64,000 nt of DNA from a virus. A program made the translations under genes and the position numbers. Location: positions 15,837-79,836 of IMG/VR virus record IMGVR_UViG_3300045988_052707, one strand, 5' to 3'. Numbering within the stretch: the first letter of the stretch is position 1; each line of letters begins with the position of its first letter. The notes under the pieces were generated by a model. It had not been told where the DNA came from and ran no database searches. It saw only the letters and a list, made by a program, of their open reading frames with translations. Below, one piece after another: positions 21,343-55,248 of the stretch.

Positions 21343-21357
21343 ATACCCTTATACTGA

Positions 21358-21531
21358 CATCATGACCTTGATTGTAACTACAATTATCATTCCTATAGTA
21401 CTTATAGCAGCTATACTTAAGAATATCTTAACCCATTTAAAGTCACAATCCCATATAGTTAGTAACATAGCTATTAATGCAGCCACAAATGCAATGACTA
21501 CAGTAATCATTAATGCTGTTTCCATATCAAT
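21358..21531 (-). CDS. small membrane protein (not in ORF track)
   Basis: METALMITVVIAFVAALIAMLLTIW... two TM-like segments. Confidence 0.35.
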
Positions 21532-21997: not shown

Positions 21998-22071
21998 TAG
22001 CGAGAAGGTGACTCGAACACCCAACCTTGCGATTATGAGTCGCACGCTCTAGCCAGTTGAGCTATCTCGCC
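21998..22071 (-). tRNA. tRNA-Met (anticodon CAT), copy 1 of 3 CAT tRNAs
   Basis: Acceptor GGCGAGA/TCTCGCT, D-arm GCTC-AACTGGCTA-GAGC, anticodon arm TGCGA-CTCATAA-TCGCA, T-loop TTCGAGT. Confidence 0.6.
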
Positions 22072-22325
22072 ATTAATAAGAACATAAAGCTCATCGTGTC
22101 TACATCGTTACCAATGCAACCTTAATACCTCCCGTTTGCTTCACTGCCGGCTAGTCTGGCTTTGTCTCCTTATGTTCTTATATATGAATAATCCGCCTGG
22201 CAGGGCTGCGAGCTGCCTTACCAATTATTGACGTCAGCTAATCTATGGAATAGCACGTCTGCTAAACTGAAATAGCCCTATAGTCATTTCTACACCTGCT
22301 CACATTTAAGTGGTGGATTACATGT

Positions 22326-23177
22326 TTATCGGTATTTATCGAACATGCTGTCTGATGCTTCTTCTCCCCACATAGACACGATAACAATACCTACTTTGGT
22401 AGCCCTAAATACTATTGGGTCTTCTAACCTTCTTTTACGGTCTTCTTCAGCTTTAGAGAAGATTTCTATGCGAATATTATTCTCCATAGTATCATAAGGC
22501 GCTGCAATTAGCCAAGTGTTATGGTCTAAATATGAGGTGCCAAGATGTAGGTAATCTTCCTCCTTATAACTTCCACCTATAGACCTCATGTACTGATAAC
22601 CACGGTCAATACCTTTGAATACAAATGGGAATCTAGAGAAATACTCAACAAGCCGTTTGGTCATGTCCTTAGACATTCTTGAATCTATTCTCGCAGCTTC
22701 AACCCAACTGACGTAGTTAAGATTTAAAGAGTTCAAAGCGTTAGAAGCCTTTGCTATTTGTGACACATTCTCACTTGGAATGAATCCGCTGAAGGTCGAT
22801 ATTGGACCACAATACAAATTGTACTTCTTCAGAATTGCAAAGAAATCCTCGTAAGTTACAACCAGTGCATCAGGATACGATTCTTTAATCCAGGATGTTA
22901 TTTCGTTAACCTTCTTCAGGTCTAATTTCTCTGGACCTAAAGCTGACTTATACTTCTTAGACTCGAGAATAGTCCTAAGGGTATCTGCATTCTTAGTTCC
23001 ACCCAGACCTGCTGCTTCCAACTTATCAAGCTCCTCTTTGATTTGCTCGGAATTGTCAAAGTCTTGATTGCCTTCTACGTACTTCTTATAGTACTCCATA
23101 GATGCTGTTACTAAGGCTAAACGTAACGCATCTGCACTCAATTTCTCCATACTATGATAAATGTTCTTTAATATCAA
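22326..23177 (-). CDS. member C of the three-gene paralog family
   Basis: C-terminus EDPIVFRATKVGIVIVSMWGEEASDSMFDKYR; LEAAGLGGTKNADTL and FSGFIPSENVSQI align to paralogs A/B. Confidence 0.6.
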   Translation of the reverse strand: MILKNIYHSMEKLSADALRLALVTASMEYYKKYVEGNQDFDNSEQIKEELDKLEAAGLGGTKNADTLRTILESKKYKSALGPEKLDLKKVNEITSWIKESYPDALVVTYEDFFAILKKYNLYCGPISTFSGFIPSENVSQIAKASNALNSLNLNYVSWVEAARIDSRMSKDMTKRLVEYFSRFPFVFKGIDRGYQYMRSIGGSYKEEDYLHLGTSYLDHNTWLIAAPYDTMENNIRIEIFSKAEEDRKRRLEDPIVFRATKVGIVIVSMWGEEASDSMFDKYR

Positions 23178-23610
23178 TCATGTATTTTATACCTTCAATT
23201 ATCACACATGCTAGCCCGCCAACGAGCATAATGAAGTATAATGCAACAATTAGTGGTTCCCAACCAGTCCCATAATCACTTCTATTAAGATTAAAGCTAA
23301 GCCTATTAGGCTTGTTATTAATAAGAGCTCTATCATAGGTTGGTTTGTCTACACGTAGTTTAAACTGATTGTCTCTACCGTCAGCTATTAGTGTAAGCTC
23401 ATATACAGTATGCGTCTGTTGATTAACTGTTTCGGTATAACAGTCCTTAGCAACTACTGTAGTCCACACAGGTTTGTCAATACAGGTTTCTTTAACTAGG
23501 TTAGATTTACATCCTCCTAGTCCTACTAAGCACACCACCAGCCATATTACTATCAAAGTTGCATGTCTGAAAGTGTTAGTTGACGGTCTCATATCAACAA
23601 TTGTTGGCAT
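23152..23610 (-). CDS. putative lipoprotein with C-terminal TM segment
   Basis: Lipobox-like LVGLGGC after hydrophobic leader; C-terminal hydrophobic helix. Confidence 0.45.
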   Translation of the reverse strand: MPTIVDMRPSTNTFRHATLIVIWLVVCLVGLGGCKSNLVKETCIDKPVWTTVVAKDCYTETVNQQTHTVYELTLIADGRDNQFKLRVDKPTYDRALINNKPNRLSFNLNRSDYGTGWEPLIVALYFIMLVGGLACVIIEGIKYMIDIKEHLS

Positions 23611-23789
23611 CCTCTGTCAGTAATTTAGTTGCTTTATCCATTCCTAACTCGTAAGCTTCAGCAATTAATACTGCTACGCTTGCTATTGAAAGCTTACCAC
23701 CGTTGTCCTCTGCTACGTTAGCTGCATTTTCAAGCAGCTCACTTAAAGTTTCTACCATAATTAAATACATTTAATAGTTAATAATCTAG

Positions 23790-23871
23790 TAGGGTAGGTG
23801 AGACTCGAACTCACACGCCCGAAGACACTTGGGCCTAAACCAAGCCTGTCTGCCAATTCCAGCACTACCCC
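23790..23871 (-). tRNA. tRNA-Leu (anticodon TAG), type II
   Basis: Acceptor GGGGTAG/CTACCCT, anticodon arm CTTGG-TTTAGGC-CCAAG, long variable arm, T-arm GTGAG-TTCGAGT-CTCAC. Confidence 0.6.
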
Positions 23872-23875
23872 ATTG

Positions 23876-24094
23876 TTACTTCATCAAATTGATAAATTCA
23901 TCTTCATGTCCCTTATAGTATCGCTGGAGATATGCAATATACACAGCTTCGTCCTTAACTATTTGAGGGAATTTAGATTCAAATTGTTCTACTTTCTCTT
24001 CTCCTACTATACTTACATGAAAGTCTCTAGGTGTAGTATCCACCTTAGTTGCAGACATTAATAAGACTAATAGGAATATCAATAAATGTCTCAT
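23876..24094 (-). CDS. small secreted protein (signal peptide)
   Basis: MRHLLIFLLVLLMSATKV leader. Confidence 0.4.
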   Translation of the reverse strand: MRHLLIFLLVLLMSATKVDTTPRDFHVSIVGEEKVEQFESKFPQIVKDEAVYIAYLQRYYKGHEDEFINLMK

Positions 24095-24141
24095 TTAGTT
24101 GTTAATAAAAGGAGAGCGAGATTACTCCCGCCCTCCAAGGT

Positions 24142-25599
24142 TTATTTGTTGTCCTTCTTCTCCGTAGAATAGTCCTTACGGTCGAGTTCCCACTGATACT
24201 CACACATCTGAGTGATTGCTTCAAGCTTCTCTGTACCCAGAACGAGTTTGAGAGCATTTACCAATCTTTCAGCCGGAGTTTCCACAACAGCTTTCTTGGA
24301 TGCGAGTCCAAGTTGACGTTGATAAGATTCAACGCTAGCTTTGATATGGAACGATGTTACATGGGTTTCTTCTGTAAAGATGAGTTTGGATTTGGTTGAT
24401 TCAACGATTTCAGCCATAAATGCCGGAGCAATTTCAGCTTCTTGAATGTAGTTACATACTTCACTCAAATCATCGTCGATTGTATATCCTTCTTCAGCGG
24501 TGAAGGTAGAACGGATGAATTTCTCCGCAGTTTCAGCGTCCAGGCAGTCCATAGTAATCACAGAACCAATTCTCTTACCTCTCAAGAAGGTAGGTTCAAT
24601 CAATTCAATGTGATTAGTAGTGAACAAGGTGATTACGTTCATATCTTTGGTATCACCACCGTCCAGAGTATTCAGGATGTCTTGCATTGCAGCATCTCTG
24701 TTACCTCTAGTTACTTGGTCAATATCTTCAACAAATACGACAACACCATGACCCGAACGGTCAACAACTTTACACATGCGCAGAGTTTCTGCAAGAAGAG
24801 AAGGATTCTTCAAATACACGAATGACCAGCCGTTCGTTACAGCATCTTTAGCCAGCTTAAATGCCAGCAAGGTCTTACCTGTACCATATTTACCTTCCAG
24901 CAAACAACCGTACTTCAATGGAATACCTTTAGCCAGACATTTCTCTGGATACAAGATTCTTGAACGTAGCGGTTGCAATTCAAATTCAGTCTTCTTAGAA
25001 AGAACCATGAATTGTTTCTCAATGCCGGCAAGCGTCATGATAGTAGGTTCAGACAGATTGCTGATTTCCAGTGCTTGATTCTTGTAGATAGATTCTGATG
25101 CCAACAGCTCTTTAGTTCTGTCAACAATATCATCAATCAATGACTGATATTTGAACTGGCATTGTCCTTTAATAAGGAGTAAATGACGGTCATTGTCATA
25201 GTTGATGTTGATTTCAGAATCTTCTCCCAATTCTTCAAGGCTGATTTTACCAAACGGAACCTTGGTACGAGAACCGTCTGCCAGAACAACGTCTACGGTA
25301 TCAATATTGCTGTTTCCAGAAGGACTGTTATCCTCCTTACTAACGGCAGAACCGAAGATTTCATTGATTGCTCTGTTCAACTGATATACACCGTCCGGTT
25401 TCCAACAAAGCAGCGAGTATTTGAAACTTGCCATTTTCTTGGACTGTTTGATTTCACCTTCGATGAATCCCAGAGCATCAGCATACTTCACATTGCTTTG
25501 GAGCACTTCAATCATTCTCTGTTTCTGAGTTTCCTCGTACTTGTTAACTCTCTGCTTAATAGCAGCTGTAGTTCCTTGCGGAATAATGTTCTTTGCCAT
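24142..25599 (-). CDS. AAA+ family ATPase (classic AAA, CDC48/FtsH-like P-loop)
   Basis: Walker A GKYGTGKTLLAFKLAK, Walker B VVVFVEDID, followed by sensor region; 250-aa unique N-domain. Confidence 0.7.
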   Translation of the reverse strand: MAKNIIPQGTTAAIKQRVNKYEETQKQRMIEVLQSNVKYADALGFIEGEIKQSKKMASFKYSLLCWKPDGVYQLNRAINEIFGSAVSKEDNSPSGNSNIDTVDVVLADGSRTKVPFGKISLEELGEDSEININYDNDRHLLLIKGQCQFKYQSLIDDIVDRTKELLASESIYKNQALEISNLSEPTIMTLAGIEKQFMVLSKKTEFELQPLRSRILYPEKCLAKGIPLKYGCLLEGKYGTGKTLLAFKLAKDAVTNGWSFVYLKNPSLLAETLRMCKVVDRSGHGVVVFVEDIDQVTRGNRDAAMQDILNTLDGGDTKDMNVITLFTTNHIELIEPTFLRGKRIGSVITMDCLDAETAEKFIRSTFTAEEGYTIDDDLSEVCNYIQEAEIAPAFMAEIVESTKSKLIFTEETHVTSFHIKASVESYQRQLGLASKKAVVETPAERLVNALKLVLGTEKLEAITQMCEYQWELDRKDYSTEKKDNK

Positions 25600-25602
25600 T
25601 AC

Positions 25603-25875
25603 TTAATTAGGTTTATTAATCTTATTTACTTCTTTAATGATTGCCTCACAATTCTCTCTTGTTGTAGTTAAACAACCAAGTTGAATAATAGAACCGTCTT
25701 GAGTGATAGTCAGGTTCTTCTCTTCGATTGTTTCCCTACATAGACCTCCTCTGATAATTCTTTTAATGAGTGGAAAGGGTAATATAGTATTCTTACAGAA
25801 TATCATATTCTTGCCTTCCACATAAATGACATCGTAGCCGTCAATGCTACCTACTACCTTACTCATTCGATTCAA
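25603..25875 (-). CDS. hypothetical protein
   Basis: 90-aa ORF. Confidence 0.4.
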   Translation of the reverse strand: MNRMSKVVGSIDGYDVIYVEGKNMIFCKNTILPFPLIKRIIRGGLCRETIEEKNLTITQDGSIIQLGCLTTTRENCEAIIKEVNKINKPN

Positions 25876-25887
25876 CTATTAACTGTG

Positions 25888-25961
25888 TGGGCCCGGCCGG
25901 ACTTGAACCGACAACCTCCTGATTATGAGTCAGTTTCTCTAACCGATTGAGATACGGGCCC
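25888..25961 (-). tRNA. tRNA-Met/fMet/Ile2 (anticodon CAT), copy 2
   Basis: Acceptor GGGCCCG/CGGGCCC, anticodon loop CTCATAA, T-arm GTCGG-TTCAAGT-CCGGC. Confidence 0.55.
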
Positions 25962-26056
25962 CGAACGCCCATGTTTACTCACAATTAACAGTTCTCAAAG
26001 AGTAGTGTTGTTAGTGACTTCATGATAAATTCTATTTTAACTGAAATAATTAGTAG

Positions 26057-26128
26057 TTGGGCTACCAGGATTCGAACCTGGGCTACAAGAGCCAAAACCT
26101 TGTGTGACTACCACTACACCATAGCCCA
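26057..26128 (-). tRNA. tRNA-Gln (anticodon TTG)
   Basis: Acceptor TGGGCTA/TAGCCCA, anticodon arm CAAGG-TTTTGGC-TCTTG, T-arm CCAGG-TTCGAAT-CCTGG. Confidence 0.55.
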
Positions 26129-26149
26129 GTAAAAGGAGTCCGAAGACTC

Positions 26150-27217
26150 CTAAACTAACTTATCGAATATCATGGGCTGTATCGACATCCATAGATTCGC
26201 TAGCATTTCTTGCTCTGCGTCAGATGCCTCATCCCAATGTGATACGTACAATTTCTCCGTTCGTTCATTCCTATAAGGAACTTTAAATGAACGGTTAATG
26301 CGTACACTGTGTGCGAATAGGTCTTTGTCGAAATCAATAGCCCTAAGCGTCTTCTGGAAATCGTTGAACTTATTATTAGGGTCATCGACATCCCTAACAG
26401 ACATTCCAGAAGGAAATGGGCCATTACCATGCCTTGTTATATAAGGACGAGTTACATAACAAGTTTGGATTTCTTTACGTATACCTGCTTTCCGCAACAG
26501 CTCGTAAGCGTTTTGTGAAGTTGTATTAGACGGAGTACAATAAGGCATTATGCCGAATCTTTGGTCAAGCAATATTCCCTGTGAACCTTCAAACACTAGG
26601 TTATCATAATTCAACAAGCAATCTTCATTAACCGTACCTGTATGTAAGAAATAAGCATGTGCTAACCTACACCAGTTGTCTAGGTCTATCGAAGGATATT
26701 TACTAGACATGTTGTAATAGTTATCCACTATGGCATTTAGTTTCTCACGCAGTATGTAAGGATTCATACAATCTACAACTGTTAAGCTGTATCCTGCCTT
26801 AACTCGGTCCAAACAAGCTTTAAACCCTGTACCTACAGTACCATGTCGTAAGTTCTCTTCGTTATTAACTTGGGAATAGACATCGAAGGGAATTACAACT
26901 TGGCAGTGAGGGTGATACTGAACAATGGGACGAACTCCCATTTTAGCTAAGTCTGCACCCTCTAACATAGAGGTAATTGGGTCTACAGTACAGTATTCGG
27001 ACCAATACGTCGGCACTCCAAGTAAGGTTCCGCTGCCAAAGTTACTAAAGGTGTGCATCATGTCTCCATGCTTTACAGTATGTCCTACTTGATGTCCACC
27101 ACTAAACCTGACTACTAACACAGACTCTCGCTTACCTATGTACTTGTTACATAAGTTGTGAACTGTCTGTCCCTTACCTTCGTCTCCAAAGAATGTTCCT
27201 AATACAATACTAATCAT
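26150..27217 (-). CDS. adenylosuccinate synthetase (PurA) family enzyme, short form; candidate PurZ-like (2-aminoadenine/Z-base pathway) enzyme
   Basis: N-terminal P-loop IVLGTFFGDEGKGQ (PurA GDEGKGK), VVRFSGGHQVGHT (PurA RYQGGHNAGHT), GTVGTGF, FEGSQGILLD...PSNTTS, TRHGNGPFP; only 355 aa and lacks the C-terminal guanine-specificity region of canonical PurA (about 430 aa). Confidence 0.6.
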   Translation of the reverse strand: MISIVLGTFFGDEGKGQTVHNLCNKYIGKRESVLVVRFSGGHQVGHTVKHGDMMHTFSNFGSGTLLGVPTYWSEYCTVDPITSMLEGADLAKMGVRPIVQYHPHCQVVIPFDVYSQVNNEENLRHGTVGTGFKACLDRVKAGYSLTVVDCMNPYILREKLNAIVDNYYNMSSKYPSIDLDNWCRLAHAYFLHTGTVNEDCLLNYDNLVFEGSQGILLDQRFGIMPYCTPSNTTSQNAYELLRKAGIRKEIQTCYVTRPYITRHGNGPFPSGMSVRDVDDPNNKFNDFQKTLRAIDFDKDLFAHSVRINRSFKVPYRNERTEKLYVSHWDEASDAEQEMLANLWMSIQPMIFDKLV

Positions 27218-27223
27218 TTCAGT

Positions 27224-28156
27224 TTAATAAAATTTGTCATTACTATCAGACGGCACATCTTGCCATTCCTGACTAACAGAAGCACTAGGAGCTAAGCCTT
27301 CAGTAGGCTCCTCATAGTTCTCTTTAATTGCGGTGACAATCACCTTGTCTACTTCTCCAGATGCACATGTCAATACATTCTGTCCAAGTAAAGTCTTCCA
27401 AGATTCAGCAACCCTTGAGCCATGACTGGCATTAGTAATGTGAATGTGGAATACATGGTACTGTTCCTTTGCTTTGTCAAGAGCTTCTTGACAAGTAATG
27501 GTTTTAGCACCTTTTTGATACCCTAGAACACGTTCTAAGTAACATCCCTCTACCTTATCGAGATTTGGTTCATCTCCAATAGTAAATAAGAATCCCTTAG
27601 TGTGTCTTTCAAACCAGGAATCAGTTTCAGTATGATAACCCGCTACGATGTGAGATAGTAGATAGCTTTCGCCTCTATTACCTCCTCCTCCACCTTCAAT
27701 CACGAACGATTGTAAAGTGTCAAGAATTTTAGCTGTATCAGACTCAAACTGCCCAATTTGAATTGGATATCGGTCATAAACGTGGTCCCCAACTGCCATA
27801 AACATGATTTGTGGGTCACGCACACCTAGTTGAATGAGAGAGTCCATAATCTTAGGGAATTGGTCTCTAATCATTTCATAAGGTGTGTCCATCATTGAAC
27901 CAGTAACGTCTAGAGCAATGATTATCGGAGTAGAGAAAGGATGTTCTTTAGAATCACGAGATTCACGAACACCCACGTTAACCATTTCTTGCCTTATCTG
28001 CGTGTTATACTGCCTAACATTGTTGTTAAGCGATGCAGCAGTATTACATGCATTAATGGCATGGCTACTAAAGAGTTCATCCCTAGTGGAGGTATATAAA
28101 CCCCTACTGCTGGCCTCTACATCATAAGCAATTCTAGAATAACTACCTGCTCCCAT
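27224..28156 (-). CDS. von Willebrand factor A (vWA) domain protein
   Basis: MIDAS motif IIIALDVTGSM, downstream T and D residues, Gly-rich GGGGGNRGESY loop. Confidence 0.65.
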   Translation of the reverse strand: MGAGSYSRIAYDVEASSRGLYTSTRDELFSSHAINACNTAASLNNNVRQYNTQIRQEMVNVGVRESRDSKEHPFSTPIIIALDVTGSMMDTPYEMIRDQFPKIMDSLIQLGVRDPQIMFMAVGDHVYDRYPIQIGQFESDTAKILDTLQSFVIEGGGGGNRGESYLLSHIVAGYHTETDSWFERHTKGFLFTIGDEPNLDKVEGCYLERVLGYQKGAKTITCQEALDKAKEQYHVFHIHITNASHGSRVAESWKTLLGQNVLTCASGEVDKVIVTAIKENYEEPTEGLAPSASVSQEWQDVPSDSNDKFY

Positions 28157-28159
28157 AAA

Positions 28160-28540
28160 TTACTCATTTACAATTGCAGCAGCGTCATCTTTCACGTCAT
28201 CCAAATTAATGGATTCTGATGCATCAGCGGGAAATTCTTCTGCATCGACTTGCATAGCTAGAGCAAGTTCAATCTTTGCAACACGCAGTTTACGTGCCAA
28301 TTCATGTCTCGTTCTTACCCATTCAGCCGGATTCAGTCCTTCTCCCGGATTCAAAGAGTCTCTTGATTTAACAGCCAGGTCGTTGTGTTTGTTGATTTCT
28401 CCCTGAATGCGAAGTACTTTCAACTTACAATCCTGAACGAATCTGTCTTCCTCGATTTTAGCCAATTCATACAGATTCTGCGCTCTTGCATCAAGTACAC
28501 TTTGTCCACTCTTACTTAATTTCTCTTTAAAACTGCTCAT
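28160..28540 (-). CDS. coiled-coil protein
   Basis: 126-aa ORF with heptad-like K/E/L pattern. Confidence 0.45.
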   Translation of the reverse strand: MSSFKEKLSKSGQSVLDARAQNLYELAKIEEDRFVQDCKLKVLRIQGEINKHNDLAVKSRDSLNPGEGLNPAEWVRTRHELARKLRVAKIELALAMQVDAEEFPADASESINLDDVKDDAAAIVNE

Positions 28541-28627
28541 TTACACTTACATTTAACATGTTAAATTCAATAAGCATCTCTGTGTGGTAATTTATAATCT
28601 AACTGTAATCATCTAGGATTACAATCG

Positions 28628-28700
28628 AGCCACCTTAGGGACTCGAACCCTAAACAGCCGCATTACAAGTGCGGTACTCTACCAATTGAGTTAAGGTGGC
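28628..28700 (-). tRNA. tRNA-Thr (anticodon TGT)
   Basis: Acceptor GCCACCT/AGGTGGC, anticodon arm CCGCA-CTTGTAA-TGCGG, T-loop TTCGAGT. Confidence 0.6.
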
Positions 28701-28758
28701 ATAAACAGGAGACGATGTTACCAAGTGTGCTGACATCTCCTTCGTAAATCAAAGAAAG

Positions 28759-28830
28759 CGGTGCATACGGGATTCAAACCCGTGGTCTCCTCATAGACAG
28801 TGAGGCATCCTATCACTGAACGAATGCACC
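28759..28830 (-). tRNA. tRNA-Asp (anticodon GTC)
   Basis: Acceptor GGTGCAT/ATGCACC, anticodon arm CCTCA-CTGTCTA-TGAGG, T-arm ACGGG-TTTGAAT-CCCGT. Confidence 0.5.
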
Positions 28831-29135
28831 ATGAAGCTTGCTTAACCTACCCTCTAAACCTATGCTTGGACTTGCAATCAGTTATTCAGGTATTGTCCCT
28901 TCCCGCTAGCTGAGTCATTCTCTTACTGTAACCGTGTGTCCAACTCACAATTACTATTCAGATGTGCCAAATGGGACATGGCAATTCATAGAAAGTGGGT
29001 GCTAGCCGTTTCTATCCCACCATTGCGTACTACAGTGCTAGCTACCGTCTAAGCTCCTATCCCTTACGTCGCCTTAGAGTGTACATGATTATTATTGCCT
29101 AACCAGTTACCTGATTGGAAGGATTATGTACGAGG

Positions 29136-29207
29136 TACTGCCAACGGGATTCGAACCCGTATTTTCAGTGTGAGAGACTGATTACCTAACCCTTAGTAGA
29201 TGGCAGT
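29136..29207 (-). tRNA. tRNA-Glu (anticodon CTC), tentative
   Basis: Acceptor ACTGCCA/TGGCAGT, anticodon arm TCAGT-CTCTCAC-ACTGA, T-arm ACGGG-TTCGAAT-CCCGT; D-arm weak. Confidence 0.45.
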
Positions 29208-29490
29208 GTGTTAAATAGTCGTGAGTAGTTAATTGCAACTATGACAAAATTAAGATTAAAGTCAAAGACCAGCCTATTGCTATCTAGGGCAAAGTCAAAG
29301 GAATTTTGTAACTTCGCAATAGACTGACAGGGTTTGAATTAATAATACTTAATTATGCTGGAAATCGTCCCTGTATGAAATACAGAACACGATTAATTTG
29401 TCGACAATGCATCGACTAGAGTCTTTGATGCAATTCATACTACTCACGCAAAGCTATGTTAGAATCCAATGAGATTCAAGACTATAGCAC

Positions 29491-38695: not shown

Positions 38696-38767
38696 TGCCC
38701 CATGTTGGACTCGAACCAACGCCATACAAGTTTAGAATTTGCTCTTCTACCACTGAAGTAATGGGGC
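38696..38767 (-). tRNA. suppressor-type tRNA, anticodon CTA (would decode amber UAG)
   Basis: Acceptor GCCCCAT/ATGGGGC, D-arm CTTC-AGTGGTA-GAAG, anticodon arm GCAAA-TTCTAAA-CTTGT (U33, A37; one A-C mismatch at loop-closing pair), T-arm GTTGG-TTCGAGT-CCAAC; 4 nt from the preceding CAT tRNA. Confidence 0.55.
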
Positions 38768-38804
38768 GACAGAGGGTTTTACGAGATTACCCACAACTCA
38801 TCAA

Positions 38805-39122
38805 CTATTCGATAATTTGATTCCACTGTTCAAGTGTAAGTTCCTTGACTACTATGCCATTTAGTTCAAATGGAGTATATTGGTTTCCATTCTCTTCTAC
38901 AAGGATTAACCATTCGTAGCCACGTTGTTTGCTATGAGTTCTAATAATCTCCTTAATGGTTTCGATGCCAAAAGGAGTTAGAATCTTCTGCCCTTCTCTG
39001 TAAAGATACCTCTTGTTGAGGTCTTTTAAATCCTCTAATGTGGTTAAATGAGGATTAGGGTTCTTAGTGATAACTACATGGTCATCTCCTACACTAACAT
39101 AATAATCTCGTTTGTATATCAT
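38805..39122 (-). CDS. hypothetical protein
   Basis: 105-aa ORF. Confidence 0.45.
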   Translation of the reverse strand: MIYKRDYYVSVGDDHVVITKNPNPHLTTLEDLKDLNKRYLYREGQKILTPFGIETIKEIIRTHSKQRGYEWLILVEENGNQYTPFELNGIVVKELTLEQWNQIIE

Positions 39123-39421
39123 TCTCTTACTAATTTAAGTTTCTTGAACATGCGACCGTCATCTTGTAATGCGATTGCTGTTAATTGATTGCCAAGGTCT
39201 GGTTCATAGAATGAAGAATAGTCCTTATTAACTAAGTCCAGTCTTACTTTCCATTTGTCTAAGTCTGCATATAAGTAGATTAAATAGCTATTATTCCACT
39301 CTTGATTAGGATGTTCTAATAACCACTGTGCTACTGCATGACCTCCTTGTACACAACCATAAACTGCATCAAGCTTCTGGTCTATCAGCACATACAATCT
39401 CTTCATCAGAATATGTATCAA
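39119..39421 (-). CDS. hypothetical protein
   Basis: 100-aa ORF, overlaps neighbours by 4 nt. Confidence 0.45.
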   Translation of the reverse strand: MIHILMKRLYVLIDQKLDAVYGCVQGGHAVAQWLLEHPNQEWNNSYLIYLYADLDKWKVRLDLVNKDYSSFYEPDLGNQLTAIALQDDGRMFKKLKLVRE

Positions 39422-39707
39422 TCAGTGAATCAACTCTTTCTCGGAAATACTTCTCTCCACTATACATCTTAGAATAACCACACCAACCTTGAGTTTCAAG
39501 TGATTTCCATTCTTTGATAACTTTAGCTAGATACTCATTTATAGCTTCTCCGATTAGTTTATGCTTTAATATGTAATAAGCTACATACATTGCATGTAAT
39601 CTTCCTCTGTTGTAATAAACTGATGAGCAGTCATTAATATTCTTAGCTGCTTTCTGTGCTTTTACTAAATTCGCGATTTCTTGTTTAAATTGTTTAATTG
39701 TTGCCAT
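39369..39707 (-). CDS. hypothetical protein
   Basis: 112-aa ORF. Confidence 0.45.
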   Translation of the reverse strand: MATIKQFKQEIANLVKAQKAAKNINDCSSVYYNRGRLHAMYVAYYILKHKLIGEAINEYLAKVIKEWKSLETQGWCGYSKMYSGEKYFRERVDSLIDTYSDEEIVCADRPEA

Positions 39708-39796
39708 GATAGTTAATTGTTAATAAGTTAATAAATAAATTGCCTTAATTAATAATCAACTATCTTATGGTGGCTTGTAAGTAATCTACCGCATAA

Positions 39797-40093
39797 TCAT
39801 TTCCCTTTAATTTGTTTACACATGTTAATAAACTCATCATCCGATTCACATATAATCGGATTCGTTTCCTTGAGATACATCTCCAGATAGGCTTCTTTAG
39901 ACAAATCGTCCACGTCATCCGGATACACACCATGTACATCATATGACATATGAGAACCCCAGCAACTAAGCCAATCAGCATCCTCAAATGTAGTACATAT
40001 ACACACACTTAACCCAGCATCCTCTAGTTTCTTACGAAGTTCTGGAGTATTCTTCTTAATAAGACAGTGTTCACTCATGGATTTAATACACAT
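39797..40093 (-). CDS. hypothetical protein
   Basis: 98-aa ORF (the overlapping 39760..40008 ORF in another frame is less protein-like). Confidence 0.4.
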   Translation of the reverse strand: MCIKSMSEHCLIKKNTPELRKKLEDAGLSVCICTTFEDADWLSCWGSHMSYDVHGVYPDDVDDLSKEAYLEMYLKETNPIICESDDEFINMCKQIKGK

Positions 40094-40413
40094 AAACCAC
40101 CTTTCTCGGAATCTCTAAGCACATACTTAATACCTGGAATACCAGGACCTGATACCTTATAAATGGTTAGTTCGTTAATAAATTCATACTGCACTCTGTT
40201 GATTTTATAATCTCCATTAGTAGCAGCAGACTCATTAATTGATGCTTTACTTGTGGTTGCAAATAATGCCAAGAAGGTAAATACTCCACATAATCCACCA
40301 ATAACACCTGCCTTAAATGATGTCTCTTTCATAATCTCATCTATTATTAATAATGAGCGGGATAACAGAATCGAACTGTCATCTTCAGCTTGGAAGGCTG
40401 TTATAATAACCAT
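40075..40413 (-). CDS. membrane-anchored hypothetical protein
   Basis: TM segment VIGGLCGVFTFLALFATT; 3' end abuts tRNA-Gly so true stop/start may differ. Confidence 0.35.
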   Translation of the reverse strand: MVIITAFQAEDDSSILLSRSLLIIDEIMKETSFKAGVIGGLCGVFTFLALFATTSKASINESAATNGDYKINRVQYEFINELTIYKVSGPGIPGIKYVLRDSEKGGLCVLNP

Positions 40414-40427
40414 TATACGAATCCCGC
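40356..40427 (-). tRNA. tRNA-Gly (anticodon TCC)
   Basis: Acceptor GCGGGAT/ATCCCGC, anticodon loop CTTCCAA, T-arm GACAG-TTCGATT-CTGTT. Confidence 0.55.
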
Positions 40428-40514
40428 AGTTTACTTCTACTATTCTCTCGAACCATAGAAGGGTTTGTCGAGTTTGACCTCAACAGATATTGTATTTAAT
40501 TATCGCAGTGTGAG

Positions 40515-40597
40515 TGGGCATGGTAGGATTCGAACCTACTCAGCCATAGGCAACGGTTTTACAGACCGCCCCAGCTCTCCAACTCTGGCGCATACCC
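40515..40597 (-). tRNA. tRNA-Tyr (anticodon GTA), type II
   Basis: Acceptor GGGTATG/CATGCCC, anticodon arm GCGGT-CTGTAAA-ACCGT, long variable arm TGCCTATGGCTGAG, T-arm GTAGG-TTCGAAT-CCTAC. Confidence 0.6.
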
Positions 40598-40847
40598 GAA
40601 TCACACAATCCATATTAACTGTGAATTGTGAGTGCAAAGGTAATGAATCTTTCCCACATATAAAAGTTAATATGTATTAAATACGATAGAAGTTTGCTCG
40701 ATATTAAACTAAGCTCACATATTCTCTCGAACCGATGAGCTTAGTAGTTATTCAACAATTGCAGATACTTTAACTCGTAATAATGACTATGAGTCGAGAT
40801 AGAAATGACACTGCATATGTTGAAAGAATCATATTAATAAAATGGTG

Positions 40848-40921
40848 TAGAGATAACCAGATTCGAACTGATGTTCTTCTAAAGATTGACTTTAGCTGTT
40901 CTACCACTGAACTATATCTCT
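40848..40921 (-). ncRNA. tRNA-like element with non-canonical anticodon arm (loop GTCAATC; CAA?) about 160 nt downstream of Ro60-like gene; tRNA or Y-RNA-like module
   Basis: Acceptor AGAGATA/TATCTCT, D-arm GTTC-AGTGGTA-GAAC, T-arm ATCAG-TTCGAAT-CTGGT all fine; anticodon region CTAAA-GTCAATC-TTTAG has pyrimidine at position 37 and a type-I scaffold inconsistent with Leu. Confidence 0.4.
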
Positions 40922-41084: not shown

Positions 41085-42779
41085 TTAGGCCTTCACAGGC
41101 TTCTTCTGCACGCTTGCATTCTTCTTGACAACATCCTTCTCTAGAATCATCATATTAAGCAACTCTTGATTCATAGCATGCTTAAAAATGTCTCTGGTGG
41201 TTTTAGGCACCTGGAACCTCTTCTCTCCAGTAATAAATGAGGATGTTGAATTATTAAGTCCATTTACTAAGAAGCAATTTGACACTCCTGGAACCAAAGC
41301 TACATTAGGTCTTCCTTTATATGCTAAAGGAACTCTCCAAATAATAACTTTGAACGCCCTTACAAATTCCTTACTGAAATTTGCTTTAAGCAATCTCTGC
41401 TTAAATTCCACGAATGCTTGGTTGTTCAACTTGGTAAAATATGTATGGTTAGTAATTACCACACAACCTCTAGGGAACTCTCCTTCATCTACACCATAAC
41501 CTTCTTTCATTTTACATAACATTTCTGCTATATTAACAATAGAAGGATTCTGGCATAATGCTTCTTCTTTGTCAGATTTCCATTTCTCAATGACATTCTG
41601 ACCTTTGAACTTACGTAGAACCATGTTATCTTCTAACACGGCATAGGAGTTTTTGAATATTGTAGGAAGTAGTTCAGAGTGATATAAAGCATATGCTTTA
41701 CCCAAACTGTAAGCAGATGTTTCGCTATTCTCTATCTTACCATTAGCAGAATGGCTTATATCTCTTACTACCAACAACGGAGCTACTCTATTGCGTTTAG
41801 CATTATCAACGAATACGTTGAAACTTGCATTAATAGAAGTTTCCATAAATTCTGGAATCTCTTCGGCAATTTTATCCAATCCATATGGTTTGAATAAAGT
41901 ATGTAGAAATCCGCTATTAGAGGGCTTCTTACGGTTCTTTAACCAGTTCTGATACTTCTCTTTAAGACCTTGATGTTTGAGGAATTTAGAGCCTACTAGC
42001 TGTGCCAGCGCCTTTCCAGTAACAGTGTCAAAATCAATTTCCAAGAATTTCTTTTGACTGATTAACTGCTGCCATTGGGCAGCTTTCCCGCTATTCTTCA
42101 TCTTCCTATATTTACGATAGGTTGAATAGTCTCCTTCATCCTTAGGTTTACCATAAAGGCCTTCCGCCAAGAATTTGGCTACTATGTTACGTGCTTTTGC
42201 CTCATCTGTCTTACATGCAACACTGGAACGAACACGAGGAAGATACTTCTTTACTAAATCACATGTCTGACCGTTGGCAAGACCTGCGAATATGACTTTC
42301 TTGAAGAAGTCCCAATCCAATCTGTGCTTAAAGCCATGGAGTTGAACATCTAAAGCCATCATAGTAATGAAATCTTTCCAGCATCCAGCTGCTGCAAAAT
42401 AAGCAATGTTGGCATGGAATGTGGGTTTGTGATAGATTGCCAACCACAACATTCTCATTATACCTTCATTCTTCAAACCTTCTCCTTGCTGTGTATCAAG
42501 TTGTGTAACTCCTTCCGGGGTAGTTATTCTACATTTACGAGTTATCATTCTCGTATATGCAGTAAACTTGGTACATAGTAATGGATTAGCTTTCCATAAA
42601 GGATACATATCTTTAGCCACTTGCACGTAGGTACGTGGCTGAAGACATTTCTTAAGATTAACAAACTGGTCTATGAATAACTGATTATTATCCACAAACT
42701 TGGGTTTATTCTCATCCCGCCTTTGACGTGCGGCATTAGGGTAAGGCCTCCTTGGCCTTTGTGCTCCTTTCATTTCCAT
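41085..42779 (-). CDS. Ro60/TROVE-domain-like RNA-binding protein with C-terminal vWA/MIDAS region (Rsr-like)
   Basis: C-terminal block aligns with Ro60 vWA: LLVVRDISHSANG (DxSxS MIDAS), SYAVLEDNMV ~ SYVVAFSDEMV, GCVVITNHTYF ~ ADVFIVFTDNETF; 564 aa, similar to Ro60/Rsr size. Confidence 0.5.
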   Translation of the reverse strand: MEMKGAQRPRRPYPNAARQRRDENKPKFVDNNQLFIDQFVNLKKCLQPRTYVQVAKDMYPLWKANPLLCTKFTAYTRMITRKCRITTPEGVTQLDTQQGEGLKNEGIMRMLWLAIYHKPTFHANIAYFAAAGCWKDFITMMALDVQLHGFKHRLDWDFFKKVIFAGLANGQTCDLVKKYLPRVRSSVACKTDEAKARNIVAKFLAEGLYGKPKDEGDYSTYRKYRKMKNSGKAAQWQQLISQKKFLEIDFDTVTGKALAQLVGSKFLKHQGLKEKYQNWLKNRKKPSNSGFLHTLFKPYGLDKIAEEIPEFMETSINASFNVFVDNAKRNRVAPLLVVRDISHSANGKIENSETSAYSLGKAYALYHSELLPTIFKNSYAVLEDNMVLRKFKGQNVIEKWKSDKEEALCQNPSIVNIAEMLCKMKEGYGVDEGEFPRGCVVITNHTYFTKLNNQAFVEFKQRLLKANFSKEFVRAFKVIIWRVPLAYKGRPNVALVPGVSNCFLVNGLNNSTSSFITGEKRFQVPKTTRDIFKHAMNQELLNMMILEKDVVKKNASVQKKPVKA

Positions 42780-43160
42780 CTCTTTGTTTAAATTTATTGT
42801 TATGAGAGTCTTTCTTTATTCTAAACAATAAACAAGCGGCATTACGGCAATTGGACATGCGTTAATCCGCTCGCCACTTACAGACCGTAATGCACACTTG
42901 ACCAGGCAGGAAAGAGGTTTGCTTGGTGACCTATCTGCATGCTGATTATATAATGCAGACCGTGTAGATTCTCTCTTACACAATATCTATAGTAGATTTG
43001 CACTACTGTTTTCTGATGCTTAATCAGGCGAACTCTTACTGTTCGAATAGATACAGGTTTCAACTCTTTGATATAGCCTTTTAAGTCATAGACACACTCC
43101 GGAGTATGTCTACTGGTTCTTCAGACCAAGTTTTGCTACCACCATTCGTCAATAGTGGAT

Positions 43161-44650: not shown

Positions 44651-44694
44651 CCTTCATTTTAGTAATTCCAATTAAGCGTTAATAATAGTGGACC

Positions 44695-44725
44695 ATCGCG
44701 GACTCGAACCGCGGTCTTCACAACT
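44695..44725 (-). other. tRNA 3'-fragment (perfect T-arm CGCGG-TTCGAGT-CCGCG + acceptor 3' strand ATGGTCC-A) without detectable 5' half
   Basis: No complementary GGACCAT or D-arm within 400 nt upstream; lies at the 3' end of a ~900-nt ORF-poor, hairpin-rich region. Confidence 0.35.
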
Positions 44726-45334
44726 CTAAATAACAAGATTACGTGTGTCTCTATTTTATTACATCAGCTGTTGAGTTCAGCATGTAGATAGTTTTACTAA
44801 GAAGCTGAGTGTTAATTCACCAATTACGTCTCCTCGTAAGGCTACGACTTAGTTGTTCACAAACTACCAAACTGGGCTTGACCGAACGGTCGCTCCACCA
44901 CTCCATTTACGTTGGAGAACGTCTATTTGTAACCCATAGCTAGGTAGTGGAGATTTCAGCTTACTAACTCTTAGAGTGTTCTGTTAATGACGTTTGTCAA
45001 TCCTCTTCTGTTTCTAGGTCTCTCCAATTAACCCGACTTAATCAATATAAATACTGATAAGCCAGCAGCTTAGGCTGCCATTCTTACTTCAGTGTTTCCA
45101 CTTAAAATTGTGCATCATTATTAAAGAGTTGGTGCCAACTCTACACGTCTTGCTACCCAGTCATCATGAATCAATTCCATGTATGGCCCATAAATGGCAT
45201 GATTATACTCTCATGCCAGGAGTCATTATGAATTTTAAAAATTTAGGGAGCACAAAATCACCAGTATCCTCCTGTGCCACATTGAGTGGCGTACCCATTG
45301 AGGACTTAGTAACTTATGAGCTATTTTGTTCCAT

Positions 45335-45755: not shown

Positions 45756-45836
45756 CTTTAAAATGATTGGGAGAGGATGGGAGATTCGAACTCCCACTAC
45801 TAGTTGTAACTAGCCTTCTACCATTAAACTAATCCT
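45756..45836 (-). tRNA. tRNA with encoded CCA; anticodon ambiguous (6-nt loop TTACAA between palindromic CTAG stems: TAC/Val or ACA)
   Basis: Acceptor AGAGGAT/ATCCTCT + discriminator C + CCA, T-arm GGGAG-TTCGAAT-CTCCC; Val is the only amino acid otherwise missing from the array. Confidence 0.45.
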
Positions 45837-45848
45837 CTCTTGGCATTA

Positions 45849-51962: not shown

Positions 51963-52006
51963 CGAACTTAAATCGCAGAATTTAATAACAATTAAAATTT
52001 ATAACA

Positions 52007-52261
52007 ATGGCTAAAGAAGTTAAAGACTTAACAAGTAAAGAAGTAGATGAAGTAAAAATATTAAAGACTAGTTTGTCAGAATGTCCAGTAAATACTGATT
52101 TAGGATGTAATGAATCAAAGGCAACTAACTGGGTGAAGTTAGACAATAAAACAACAGATGTAAAATTAGAATTATTAAATAAATTGCAAGACGGACTAGC
52201 TAATGGAGCTGGTATTGAATATTTAATGCAACTATCTTGCATTTATAATAACATTCGCTAA
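52007..52261 (+). CDS. hypothetical small protein (first gene of plus-strand cassette)
   Basis: 84-aa ORF. Confidence 0.5.
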   Translation: MAKEVKDLTSKEVDEVKILKTSLSECPVNTDLGCNESKATNWVKLDNKTTDVKLELLNKLQDGLANGAGIEYLMQLSCIYNNIR

Positions 52262-52263
52262 TA

Positions 52264-52638
52264 ATGAGACATATTGATAGAATTAATAAGCAGTATGAAG
52301 AGAAGGAAGTTAAATTGCTATACGATAAAGCTGTAGCATTAATGAATCTTCTTAGTGATGAGGAATATGAACAAGTAATTACAGATAATGCAGATATATT
52401 TAAATTAGCATCTCATCCCGAGAAGGGTGAGTTCTATTTGCAAGATAAGCACAACTTAGTCCAGATTGTAGATATATTTAGTAAATTTATCAAAACTAAA
52501 GGTCTATCTAAGGACGAATTTAAAATAATGACTCTAGATGAAGTTAAAGAGTATATGGTTGATGTTATTAATGATATCACATCATTCGAACCAGATGAGC
52601 TATTCACGATAGTAAAGAACTTAGAGAAACTTCAATGA
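52264..52638 (+). CDS. hypothetical protein
   Basis: 124-aa ORF starting 2 nt after previous stop. Confidence 0.5.
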   Translation: MRHIDRINKQYEEKEVKLLYDKAVALMNLLSDEEYEQVITDNADIFKLASHPEKGEFYLQDKHNLVQIVDIFSKFIKTKGLSKDEFKIMTLDEVKEYMVDVINDITSFEPDELFTIVKNLEKLQ

Positions 52639-52946
52639 AACTAGAACAGATACCAGGTGATTATGATAATGTAGACCAGAGAGCTCTAGAATTATTAGAG
52701 ACTAATGACTATAAATTAGCAGAGTATATGAGGGACTATATAAAGGAATTATATGCTAACATACATATGAGAGACTTCTATATTAGAAACCTTAAGGATG
52801 AAATACTTCATACACTCAAACATAGAGACTCTATAAGTGGTGAGGAGCTACTACAAATACTAAATAAGGTAGCTCCATGGGATATGGAATATGATGGCAG
52901 ATGGCAAACTAGAGACTATTTAGCAAGAGCAAAGGCTAATCAATGA
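52635..52946 (+). CDS. hypothetical protein
   Basis: 103-aa ORF, ATGA start/stop overlap. Confidence 0.5.
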   Translation: MKLEQIPGDYDNVDQRALELLETNDYKLAEYMRDYIKELYANIHMRDFYIRNLKDEILHTLKHRDSISGEELLQILNKVAPWDMEYDGRWQTRDYLARAKANQ

Positions 52947-53016
52947 TAACACAAGAAGTAGAATTAGTAGAAGAAGCATTATATAGGAATGCGTACATAT
53001 ATCCAGGCTGGAAGTA

Positions 53017-53286
53017 TTGCCTACCTGGATTACTAAAGACAATATATTTATGACAGGAGAAGAAATTATAGTAACATTTAAAGAGCCTTGGTATAATGAT
53101 TATACCAGACGATTATACACTCAATTATCTGAACAAATGATTAGAGAAGAGATTGAGAGAGTGCGTAAAGAACCAATCATTACTAATACTGCATTTGATA
53201 TAGCAGTAGACAAGGCTTTCTTAGAGTTACTGCATGACAACAAGGATTTAATTAATATTACAGAACGATACAAGAACCATGAGTAA
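53017..53286 (+). CDS. hypothetical protein
   Basis: 89-aa ORF. Confidence 0.5.
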   Translation: MPTWITKDNIFMTGEEIIVTFKEPWYNDYTRRLYTQLSEQMIREEIERVRKEPIITNTAFDIAVDKAFLELLHDNKDLINITERYKNHE

Positions 53287-53925
53287 AATAGCAACAGAAT
53301 TAGAAGCTAAGACTATGGGGGGGGGACTCTCTCGGTAATTGATAATAAGTGCTGTACTAAAGCTAGAGCACTTGAATTAGGATGTCAGATTAAAAGTGGA
53401 TTTAGTTATACTGATAATCAGTTAGTAGAGTTAGAAGGTATAGAGGCAGCTATAACTGCTCCAAATGTAATCCTTCATTATGGTTGGCAGGATATGCCAA
53501 TTAATAATATACAGCAATTTAGAGTACGTTTCTCATTTGTTAATGAGAGTTCAGTGAATGGAGAGCCGTTTAAGTATTCTGATAATACTACTTACTTTAC
53601 AATTACTCCAAGATTAGAGCAGGGAGAACAAACATATACTAAAACTCTGGCAAATCCTCTTAAATATTACTTAGAGAAACTAGCACTTCCTAACCAAGAC
53701 CCATATAATACACCTGTTTGGATACGTTTTGAGGGATATATGATGCTTAGGCAAGTGTCTCAAATTACATTAGCAGTAGATTCTCAATCTGAGAATTGGG
53801 CAGAAGGAGTAACATTCCCTTCATCTGGAAGGTGGGTCAAAATGAATAATTCTGGTAGAGTATTTAGATTTACTGGTGGGGAAATAGACCTAAACATAGA
53901 ACTGTATACAGCGTCAGCGCAATGA
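53279..53925 (+). CDS. hypothetical protein interrupted by a G9 tract (53317-53325): N-terminal MSKIATELEAKTMGGG in one frame, remaining ~200 aa in the -1 frame
   Basis: ATG at 53279 overlaps previous stop (ATGAGTAA); frame of ORF 53494..53925 is open and protein-like back to the G-run (DYGGGTLSVIDNKCCTKARALELGCQIKSGF...) with no start codon; one extra G would fuse the frames. Confidence 0.45.
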
Positions 53926-54119
53926 TTAAAGTAACTGATAATAAAGAAGTAAAGGAAACAGTCCTAGCAGGACTTAAAAGGAATAAAGAGAAGTATGGTA
54001 AGAAGTATTGTCCATGCTCTTTAGTAAGAGATGAAGATACAGTATGTATGTGTAAAGAGTTTAGGGAAATGGAAGAAGGGACTTGCCATTGCCAACTTTA
54101 TGTTAAAACTAAAGACTAA
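53922..54119 (+). CDS. small Cys4 zinc-binding protein
   Basis: CPCSLVRDEDTVCMC...CHCQ. Confidence 0.45.
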   Translation: MIKVTDNKEVKETVLAGLKRNKEKYGKKYCPCSLVRDEDTVCMCKEFREMEEGTCHCQLYVKTKD

Positions 54120-54125
54120 TAATTA

Positions 54126-54284
54126 TGGATGAATTAAAGAACCAATTAGCACAGTATTTATGTAGCCAAATTCATAATGGTACTAAAGATTTGATTGAAT
54201 TAATTGAATCGGAAGACCTTATTAATGAACAGTGGTATAAGAACTGGAAGGAAGAGATGAGAATCTTACTACAGGAGAAGTAAT
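54126..54284 (+). CDS. small hypothetical protein (not in ORF track)
   Basis: MDELKNQLAQYLCSQIHNGTKDLIELIESEDLINEQWYKNWKEEMRILLQEK. Confidence 0.35.
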
Positions 54285-54285
54285 T

Positions 54286-54525
54286 ATGATAATACTTAGT
54301 GGAAATTGTCCTAGGCATCATAATGCCATTATGTTGGAACTTACAGACTTTGACGACAGTAAAATTTCCTATCTAGCTAGAATATCTAGAGGACATCATG
54401 TTGACACTCTATTAGTTCCGAGAGAATATAAAGATACATTTGAATCTACAGAACTACACAAGATGTTGCTACCTAATATTAGCATAGGTGATATACAATT
54501 TGCTAAAATATATTATTATGATTGA
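54286..54525 (+). CDS. hypothetical protein
   Basis: 79-aa ORF. Confidence 0.45.
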   Translation: MIILSGNCPRHHNAIMLELTDFDDSKISYLARISRGHHVDTLLVPREYKDTFESTELHKMLLPNISIGDIQFAKIYYYD

Positions 54526-54748
54526 TGTTAGAAGGACATTAGAGAATTTACATCAGATACTTCCAAACTTATCAATAGAGGACTTATTTAGAGTTCTTGA
54601 TAATATAGTAGAAGTTCCACAATTCAACATAGGACAGACAACTACTATACGTAGAGATGATAGTGGCTGGAGACCATATGATCCAGGTACATTTATATCT
54701 TATGCTAGTAATGGAATAACACTTAGTGATGAAGGAACTTGTAAATAA
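54488..54748 (+). CDS. hypothetical protein
   Basis: 86-aa ORF overlapping previous by 38 nt. Confidence 0.4.
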   Translation: MIYNLLKYIIMIDVRRTLENLHQILPNLSIEDLFRVLDNIVEVPQFNIGQTTTIRRDDSGWRPYDPGTFISYASNGITLSDEGTCK

Positions 54749-54935
54749 CTGGAATGAGAAGCATCCCGAATACGTATTGGTACACGGGATGTATTCTTAT
54801 GTAGACAATGGACAATCTAAGGATATGCACATGCTTACTATCTTTAATAAGGATAATGAATGTGTATGTGAATATAAAGGAGAAGATTTTATTAAATTAT
54901 ATAATACATTAGAAGAAGAATGGGAAGATGCTTAA
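54726..54935 (+). CDS. hypothetical protein
   Basis: 69-aa ORF. Confidence 0.4.
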   Translation: MMKELVNNWNEKHPEYVLVHGMYSYVDNGQSKDMHMLTIFNKDNECVCEYKGEDFIKLYNTLEEEWEDA

Positions 54936-54959
54936 TGTTAATATAATAGTAAGTGAATT

Positions 54960-55245
54960 ATGGAGAATAAATTAAACGTACCAAAGCTGGAATATAAAAC
55001 AGGAGAGCCTATGTGGGTTCATTGGGATAATAGATACGTATTGCGTGGAGGACATATACTAGGAAAATGCCCCAGATGAGAATTTGATAACCACAGTGGG
55101 CTACTTGGCATATATGGACGACAAATCAATAATATTGGGAAGAGGTATTGAGAATCATTGTGATGAGGACGGTACTCGCAGAGTAAAAGATACAATACAC
55201 ATACCAATGAGCTTAGTAGCTAGTTTTGGAAGTTTTGATTGATGA
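54960..55245 (+). CDS. small gene(s) split across two frames (MENKLNVPKLEYKTGEPMWVHWDNRYVLRGGHILGKCPR* then ...MDDKSIILGRGIENHCDEDGTRRVKDTIHIPMSLVASFGSFD*)
   Basis: Two ~40-aa plus-strand ORFs in adjacent frames not reported in ORF track; junction at gaaaatgccccagatga. Confidence 0.3.
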
Positions 55246-55248
55246 ACT

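Follow-up and report, generated by a model that had tools for sequence, protein, structure and literature searches.

Amber-suppressor tRNAs of gut phages have been described in connection with a changed genetic code. They accompany TAG recoding in code-15 crAss-like and other gut phages (Borges et al.; Peters et al., PMC9523058), and 96% of the genomes that carry a suppressor tRNA linked to a theta ribozyme are recoded (Kienbeck et al., PMC10879173). The closest described case is clade 8 of the Zeta crAss-like phages, a group with genomes of 172–188 kb, a GC content of 35.4–36.9%, polA, 20–29 tRNAs and Bacteroides hosts, for which the suppressor anticodon CTA was listed together with no suppression (PMC12386605, Table 1). 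In that 2025 report the CTA suppressor tRNAs without suppression were called apparently inactive, and the authors argued against the idea of an early stage of recoding, favouring instead a weakening of the host. Here we describe a CTA tRNA gene in 64,000 nt of viral DNA (positions 15,837 to 79,836 of IMG/VR record IMGVR_UViG_3300045988_052707), referred to below as the window.

ARAGORN called a tRNA with anticodon cta at 38695..38767 on the minus strand, and Rfam matched the same place to RF00005 with 62.7 bits (E=3e-11; gathering score 29). Direct reading of the gene (5'->3', GCCCCAT-TA-CTTC-AGTGGTA-GAAG-A-GCAAA-TTCTAAA-CTTGT-ATGGC-GTTGG-TTCGAGT-CCAAC-ATGGGGC-A) placed C34-U35-A36 in a seven-nucleotide loop between U33 and A37, with A73 as the discriminator and no encoded CCA end. 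The anticodon and its two neighbours are thus as given in the first-pass annotation, which named no strand; ARAGORN returned cta and no other anticodon. The 7-bp acceptor, 4-bp D stem, 5-bp T stem, T-loop TTCGA and D-loop GG of an RF00005 elongator tRNA were all present, and the amber-suppressor anticodon CUA was unchanged in all 96 loci carrying the CTA tRNA. A full 5-bp anticodon stem with U33 was not a constant feature: positions 31 and 39, an A x C mismatch in the window copy that had previously been missed, were unpaired in every variant, and position 33 was C in two of the four. The name Pyl that ARAGORN attached to the gene is its default for any CTA anticodon. tRNA-Pyl has a 6-bp anticodon stem, a 3-nt variable loop and a small D-loop without GG, and this identity is ruled out by the 4–5-bp anticodon stem, 5-nt variable loop and 7-nt D-loop with GG of the CTA tRNA.

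Table 1. Features of the window, with positions counted from its first nucleotide
Feature	Coordinates	Strand	Remarks
CUA tRNA (amber-suppressor type)	38696..38767	minus	class I, 72 nt, G1-C72, A73, A31xC39 mismatch; ARAGORN, Rfam, direct reading, covariation
CAT-anticodon tRNA	38622..38693	minus	starts 2–3 nt after the CUA tRNA; ARAGORN and Rfam
Array of about 27 further tRNA genes with interspersed small ORFs	11876..40921	minus	ARAGORN, Rfam
tRNA-Ile(gat), tRNA-Pro(tgg) and CAT tRNA	38272..38693	minus	very different alleles among strains
Small ORF, 105 aa, directly upstream of the CUA tRNA	38805..39122	minus	TAG stop; next in-frame stop TAA 5 codons on
tRNA-Arg(tcg) call	30819..30895	plus	antisense to tRNA-Ser(gct); probably an artefact
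tRNA-Ser(gct)	30834..30922	minus	
tRNA-like gene	40847..40921	minus	flanks the 564-aa protein gene
564-aa protein gene	41085..42779	minus	
RAGATH-34 RNA	43050..43158	minus	113.7 bits
Phage tmRNA	44686..45189	minus	Rfam RF00023, 66.6 bits, 504 nt; uncalled by ARAGORN
tRNA-like gene	45768..45838	minus	flanks the 564-aa protein gene; aberrant 6-nt anticodon loop
Gene ending in TAG	19209..20402		
PurZ-like gene	26150..27217	minus	TAG stop; next in-frame stop also TAG
Gene ending in TAG	29491..30384		
Plus-strand ORF island	52000..56100	plus	GC 33%
TAG read-through candidate	60739..61806	minus	163 aa, TAG, 4 codons, 180 aa; junction at 61294

The CTA tRNA gene lies within an array of tRNA genes (Table 1). 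ARAGORN made 30 calls in the window, and the array of about 28 tRNAs previously described is what remains when a call taken as an antisense artefact and the aberrant tRNA-like gene with a 6-nt anticodon loop are set aside. The former, tRNA-Arg(tcg), had no Rfam support and recurs in related loci. The array spans 19 amino acids and lacks tRNA-Val, while a Val(tac) is present in relatives without the CTA tRNA; ARAGORN found both a normal tRNA-Arg(UCU) and a normal tRNA-Arg(CCU) in the phage. None of the extracted array tRNA genes encodes CCA, the sole CCA ending belonging to the aberrant tRNA-like gene.

The CAT tRNA adjoins the CTA tRNA gene on its downstream side, as the first-pass annotation had stated, and in every relative a CAT tRNA or CAT tRNA-like gene occupies the same place beside the suppressor, beginning 2–3 nt after A73 in all clades. 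Rfam gave no ribozyme family at or above the gathering score, and with the next tRNA this close, a theta ribozyme, an HDV-like element that cuts within about 5 nt of the tRNA 3' end, was rejected. Two alleles of the CAT tRNA occur within the species, and together with tRNA-Ile(gat) and tRNA-Pro(tgg) it is represented by very different alleles among the strains (loci L105-L120), a divergence (pi 0.2–0.29) that suggests allele replacement within the array. The CAT tRNA-like gene of the sister clades is interrupted by ORF-bearing elements (L124 13857..14755, L125 13934..14829, L182 13935..15582). One insertion is in the 3' part and comes with a duplicated tRNA end, and L182 has a second in the anticodon loop; these elements may be group I introns or homing-endonuclease cassettes.

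Close to the array lies a 564-aa protein gene whose homologues carry Pfam PF11443 (DUF2828) and PF25043, and which PHROGs label 'RNA-binding protein'. A RAGATH-34 RNA was found just upstream of it, and a tRNA-like gene flanks it on either side. Across relatives the two flanking genes show aberrant or hypervariable anticodon loops, among them caa with T37, a 6-nt loop, 'ct', 'ttag', aga, cgc and cta. The protein, the two tRNA-like genes and the RAGATH-34 RNA may together form a Ro/Y-RNA-like RNA-repair or decoy module.

A circular genome of about 181 kb (181,141 nt, GC 36.8%) was rebuilt from the window, GenBank record MT835470.1 and a bridging contig, the circle being a composite of three strains that are 97–99% identical. 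MT835470.1, an unannotated 117-kb record from human faeces, overlaps the window at 58312..64000 and runs 109.5 kb past its right end, and contigs fetched with the leftmost window protein connect back to the far end of this record, closing the circle and recovering the remaining ~117 kb of the genome. All matching contigs came from the human gut. The late module, with terminase, portal, tail-fibre-like proteins and giant ORFs, occupies the plus strand from ~63.4 to 141.6 kb. Its portal protein shows a distant relationship to those of crAss-like phages, the genome encodes a DNA polymerase of family A (DNA_pol_A match, 1.5e-47), and Shine-Dalgarno sites were absent at 73 of 77 starts. These three properties, with the genome size and GC content, place the phage in its family; since the 28 tRNAs and a CTA tRNA without suppression likewise agree with what is listed for clade 8 of the Zeta crAss-like phages, it is, judged on matching properties, very probably a member of that clade.

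Two further observations concern the genome as a whole. The terminase large subunit is a single 758-aa ORF in some strains (L019/L021 2110..5383 vs L020 3104..5380), and in others it is split into 584 aa, a LAGLIDADG-type ORF with faint Pfam matches and 196 aa, which indicates a mobile intron or intein. Within the minus-strand early region, an island of plus-strand ORFs (Table 1) has inverted GC and AT skew; its ORFs gave no PHROG matches, and several public contigs end near it.

To evaluate recoding, we took as coverage the fraction of the genome in open frames of at least 450 nt. Over the whole circle this was 0.780 with code 11, 0.798 with TAG read as sense and 0.805 with TGA read as sense; the gain with TAG was no larger than that with TGA, which argues that TAG is not recoded. 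As a positive control, a relative with 65% portal identity (L084, contig IMGVR_UViG_3300045988_083600) rose from 0.31 to 0.90 when TAG was read as sense. The portal gene of this relative contains 20 in-frame TAGs, mostly aligned to Gln in relatives, and its late genes are fully recoded from TAG to Gln. A CTA tRNA was not seen in the 12.5 kb retrieved from the tRNA-array region of this relative (L151). In the window phage, terminase, portal, tail fibres and ORFs of up to 2967 aa were intact under the standard code, as were all 46 late genes, and over the whole ~181 kb there was neither in-frame TAG in conserved genes nor a coverage gain of the kind that marks code 15. The family thus contains code-15 members, and the window phage is not among them.

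These results agree with the earlier statement that TAG is not obviously recoded within the window, where both genes cited as ending in TAG (Table 1) do so, and the recoded relative shows that the phage belongs to a Bacteroidota-phage lineage with TAG-to-Gln recoded members. The suggestion that the suppressor might serve recoded late or structural genes beyond the window did not hold, because every late gene in the recovered remainder was intact in the standard code; the two analyses proposed to check it, a comparison of coding density on the whole genome and a search for in-frame TAG in late genes, likewise gave no sign of recoding. The results speak neither for nor against the other suggestion, an action on host genes that end in TAG, a hypothesis that PMC12386605 had put forward before.

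Stop-codon usage was then compared between gene classes. TAG terminates 21 of 211 called genes (~10%). The PurZ-like gene is one of these, and 18 belong to the 143 early genes. No late gene ends in TAG (0/46 vs 18/143 early genes, Fisher p=0.008), and TGA was equally depleted (p=0.011), which points to a general preference for TAA; as zero TAG among the 5 non-TAA late stops is expected ~17% of the time, TAG-specific avoidance in late genes was rejected. Backup stops were not closer after TAG than after the other stop codons, the median in-frame extension being 7.5 codons after TAG, 7 after TAA and 6.5 after TGA. Among late-strand ORFs, TAG stops made up ~15% in sister-clade phages with the CTA tRNA and 2% in a clade without it, and across clades late-gene TAG use does not track the presence of this tRNA. 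In all, no adaptation of stop-codon usage to the suppressor was detected. A link with the phage tmRNA through rescue of read-through ribosomes was considered and discarded, since the tmRNA is also present in relatives without the CTA tRNA. The PurZ-like gene is an adenylosuccinate synthetase homologue (PHROG '2-aminooxy adenylosuccinate synthetase', 2e-46; presumably the PurZ family), which hints at a 2-aminoadenine (Z) genome.

The CTA tRNA sequence was identical in 18 IMG/VR contigs of the same species. Two scans of viral contigs, a single-protein locus search and a D-arm pattern, returned this species only, and diverged relatives were gathered by an alignment-based locus search. It yielded CTA orthologues in two sister clades, whose copies of the neighbouring 564-aa protein are 68% and 63% identical to that of the window; the tRNA occupies the same slot in both, between Gly(tcc) and CAT-tRNA/Ile(gat). 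A metagenome collection was then scanned with no constraint on any part of the anticodon arm or on most stem positions; this added 54 further contigs, giving four sequence variants in total. Across these, CTA and the AAC that follows were unchanged, and all 21 pairs were 100% paired, with no broken pair. Double-sided changes had occurred at 8 pairs, in all four stems and including the tertiary pair G19:C56 -> A19:U56, as compared with 0 double-sided pairs in slid controls; the A19:U56 pair was also found in other isotypes of the same phage. The 31x39 mismatch was itself conserved (A.C, C.C, A.C). Within the species there were 0 segregating sites in the CTA tRNA, as against pi=0.026 in the adjacent ORFs and 0.2–0.29 in the adjacent Ile, Pro and CAT tRNAs. 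In two contigs of one sister clade a deletion removes the gene, which is therefore dispensable, at least in that clade. Taken together, the compensatory changes and the invariance within the species indicate purifying selection and not drift, and we conclude with high confidence that the tRNA gene is genuine and under selection, in a phage that is not recoded; 'non-functioning' is thus probably the wrong description for it.

To place the body of the tRNA, we scored it, with the anticodon masked, against profiles made from ~450 class I tRNAs of the phage family (leave-one-out accuracy 89%). Arg gave the top score for all three orthologues, a result that concerns the body and does not tell what charges the tRNA. 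The nearest neighbours of the orthologues were Arg(tct) tRNAs, with 66–72% identity, and the Arg(tct) tRNA of L139 matched the sister-clade suppressors almost exactly over a segment (GTTC-A.CG.ATA-GAAC-A-GTAGC) that begins with the D-stem and ends with the 5' half of the anticodon stem. The anticodon loops are CTTCTAA in Arg(UCU) and TTCTAAA in the suppressor. A20 and C35 are the main determinants for ArgRS in E. coli, and the suppressor has neither. The profile scores and the Arg(tct) neighbours, at ~70% identity between short RNAs, tentatively point to descent from a duplicated phage tRNA-Arg(UCU) whose identity has changed, an origin that we hold possible and somewhat short of an even chance. 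BLAST of the CTA tRNA against phage records gave only weak matches, to Lys, Arg and Asn tRNAs. The CTA tRNAs of other family members (L157, L160/L166, L172) have bodies unrelated to it, so suppressors have arisen more than once in the family.

The reading that we favour, and consider somewhat better than an even bet as a whole, is a selectively maintained CUA tRNA derived from tRNA-Arg(UCU), with modest read-through of UAG and a benefit outside the decoding of the phage's own genes. Its expression, charging, strength of suppression and benefit we infer as follows. A duplicated tRNA-Arg(UCU) would have changed its loop from CTTCTAA to TTCTAAA and lost the ArgRS determinants A20 and C35. The product would be transcribed with the array, its 3' side would be freed when RNase P cuts the adjoining CAT tRNA, and CCA addition would complete it. 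A host synthetase keyed on U35 would then charge it, most likely GlnRS, since TAG means Gln in the recoded relatives and Borges et al. argue along the same line, with LysRS as the alternative. The outcome would be modest UAG read-through in the infected cell, the tRNA probably being a weak reader: the conserved 31x39 mismatch speaks against efficient decoding, and the C33 of two of the four variants would be unusual in a tRNA that decodes efficiently. We put the chance that it reads UAG in vivo at about even. Since in-frame TAG is absent from the phage, its genes can be translated without the tRNA, and the benefit would therefore probably lie outside phage decoding, in disturbed gene expression of the host or of competing phages, or in a standing capacity for evolving code 15, which has evolved in a related lineage.

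Among the alternatives, the gene might be an evolutionary way-station of little present function and little harm, either pre-adapting the phage to TAG-to-Gln recoding or left over from it. A fully TAG-recoded relative belongs to the same family, acquisition of a suppressor before recoding has been proposed (Borges et al., bioRxiv 10.1101/2021.08.26.457843), there are variants in which the gene is deleted, and the stop codons show no adjustment to the tRNA. However, the gene has been retained in three diverged clades, its anticodon invariant and all four stems showing compensatory changes, and within the species it has not changed while neighbouring tRNAs turn over; the same argument was made against the early-recoding idea in PMC12386605. 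The unrelated bodies of the CTA tRNAs in L157, L160/L166 and L172 further indicate that the gene was not simply inherited from those lineages. We therefore consider this explanation unlikely.

A more pointed version of the favoured reading holds that a tRNA-Arg(UCU) was turned into a deliberately weak reader of UAG, by a one-nucleotide shift of the loop register with loss of A20 and C35, and kept as a weapon. The 31x39 mismatch would account for the weakness, and the targets would be TAG-gated late or lysis genes of co-infecting code-15 phages, which would be mistimed, or TAG-terminated host defence genes, which would be blunted. In this specific form we rate it as rather improbable.

The tRNA might also not be an amber suppressor. 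An effective 9-nt loop (N-TTCTAAA-C) could read AGA/AGG through UCU/CCU or a quadruplet (UAGA), or the RNA could have a non-translational role. The 31x39 positions are unpaired in all variants, and position 33 varies between T and C in two lineages, which is odd for U33 and ordinary for the wobble position of (U/C)CU; moreover, the body resembles that of tRNA-Arg(UCU), whose loop also contains the hexamer TTCTAA, and other tRNA-like genes of this genome have anticodon loops of abnormal length. In contrast, both ARAGORN and Rfam fitted a canonical 7-nt loop, the invariant CTAAAC is better explained as positions 34–39 of a CUA tRNA, the ArgRS determinant A20 is apparently lost, and the phage already has normal tRNA-Arg(UCU) and tRNA-Arg(CCU). 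tRNAscan-SE, too, gave CTA for clade 8 (PMC12386605). A shifted register of this kind, or a role outside translation, is accordingly a distinctly poor prospect.

Still less probable is a programmed read-through in which the tRNA serves to produce one particular phage protein in a form lengthened at its C-terminus. The candidate is a fusion of 163 and 180 aa (Table 1), the only coding-strand place in the whole genome where TAG read-through joins two sizeable ORFs; 12 nt separate its in-frame TAG junction, which 13 loci share in identical form, from the next start codon. In addition, the sister-clade orthologues found for the 105-aa ORF that precedes the tRNA also end in TAG. With ~20 TAG-terminated genes, however, one in-frame neighbour is expected by chance, and the joinable pair is probably coincidental: the hypervariable cassette holding both ORFs has been lost or exchanged in other strains and in the tRNA-carrying sister clades, no homologue was found with a sense codon at the junction, and the 13 loci are all close relatives, which makes their identity uninformative. 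Finally, a decayed pseudogene or prediction artefact, as the 31x39 mismatch, the missing CCA and the dispensability in two contigs might suggest, is hardly credible for a gene with 62.7 bits, 21 pairs intact in four variants with 8 compensatory pairs, and no variation within its species, set among array tRNA genes that likewise encode no CCA.

Compared with the clade 8 Zeta crAss-like phages (PMC12386605), the window phage shows no difference in kind and by appearance belongs to the same group; the phenomenon, very probably in the same clade, was thus already published, and the present analysis adds confirmation and details. Where that report spoke of apparently inactive tRNAs, the covariation and the invariance within the species show an RNA under selection. 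The additions include a closed genome with a negative test for recoding and a positive control, as well as the conserved 31x39 mismatch, the variation between U33 and C33, the suggested origin from Arg(UCU), the deletion variants and the unadapted stop-codon usage. The suppressors of code-15 crAss-like and gut phages (Borges et al.; Peters et al., PMC9523058) share the anticodon, the host phylum and the wider phage lineage with this tRNA, whereas the window phage is without in-frame TAG and the body of its tRNA is unrelated to those of the other CTA tRNAs in the family. The theta-ribozyme-associated tRNA-Sup (Kienbeck et al., PMC10879173) is likewise a viral amber-suppressor tRNA of human-gut phages; unlike it, the tRNA described here is followed by a CAT tRNA and not by a ribozyme, so that its 3' end would come from RNase P cutting the neighbour, and its phage is not among the recoded majority.

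A tRNA that reads a stop codon and is unused for the phage's own genes bears on how genetic codes change, and such phages raise the question of suppressor tRNAs acting on the host or on rival phages; the window phage is a clear case of this with its genome fully rebuilt, and its recoded relative provides the contrast. The amber suppressors constructed from E. coli tRNAs by Normanly, Kleina, Abelson and Miller, with CUA on non-Gln bodies, were reportedly charged with Gln or Lys as a rule because U35 dominates recognition. The tRNA described here likewise bears CUA on a non-Gln body and differs from these laboratory suppressors in being natural, phage-borne and found in Bacteroides.
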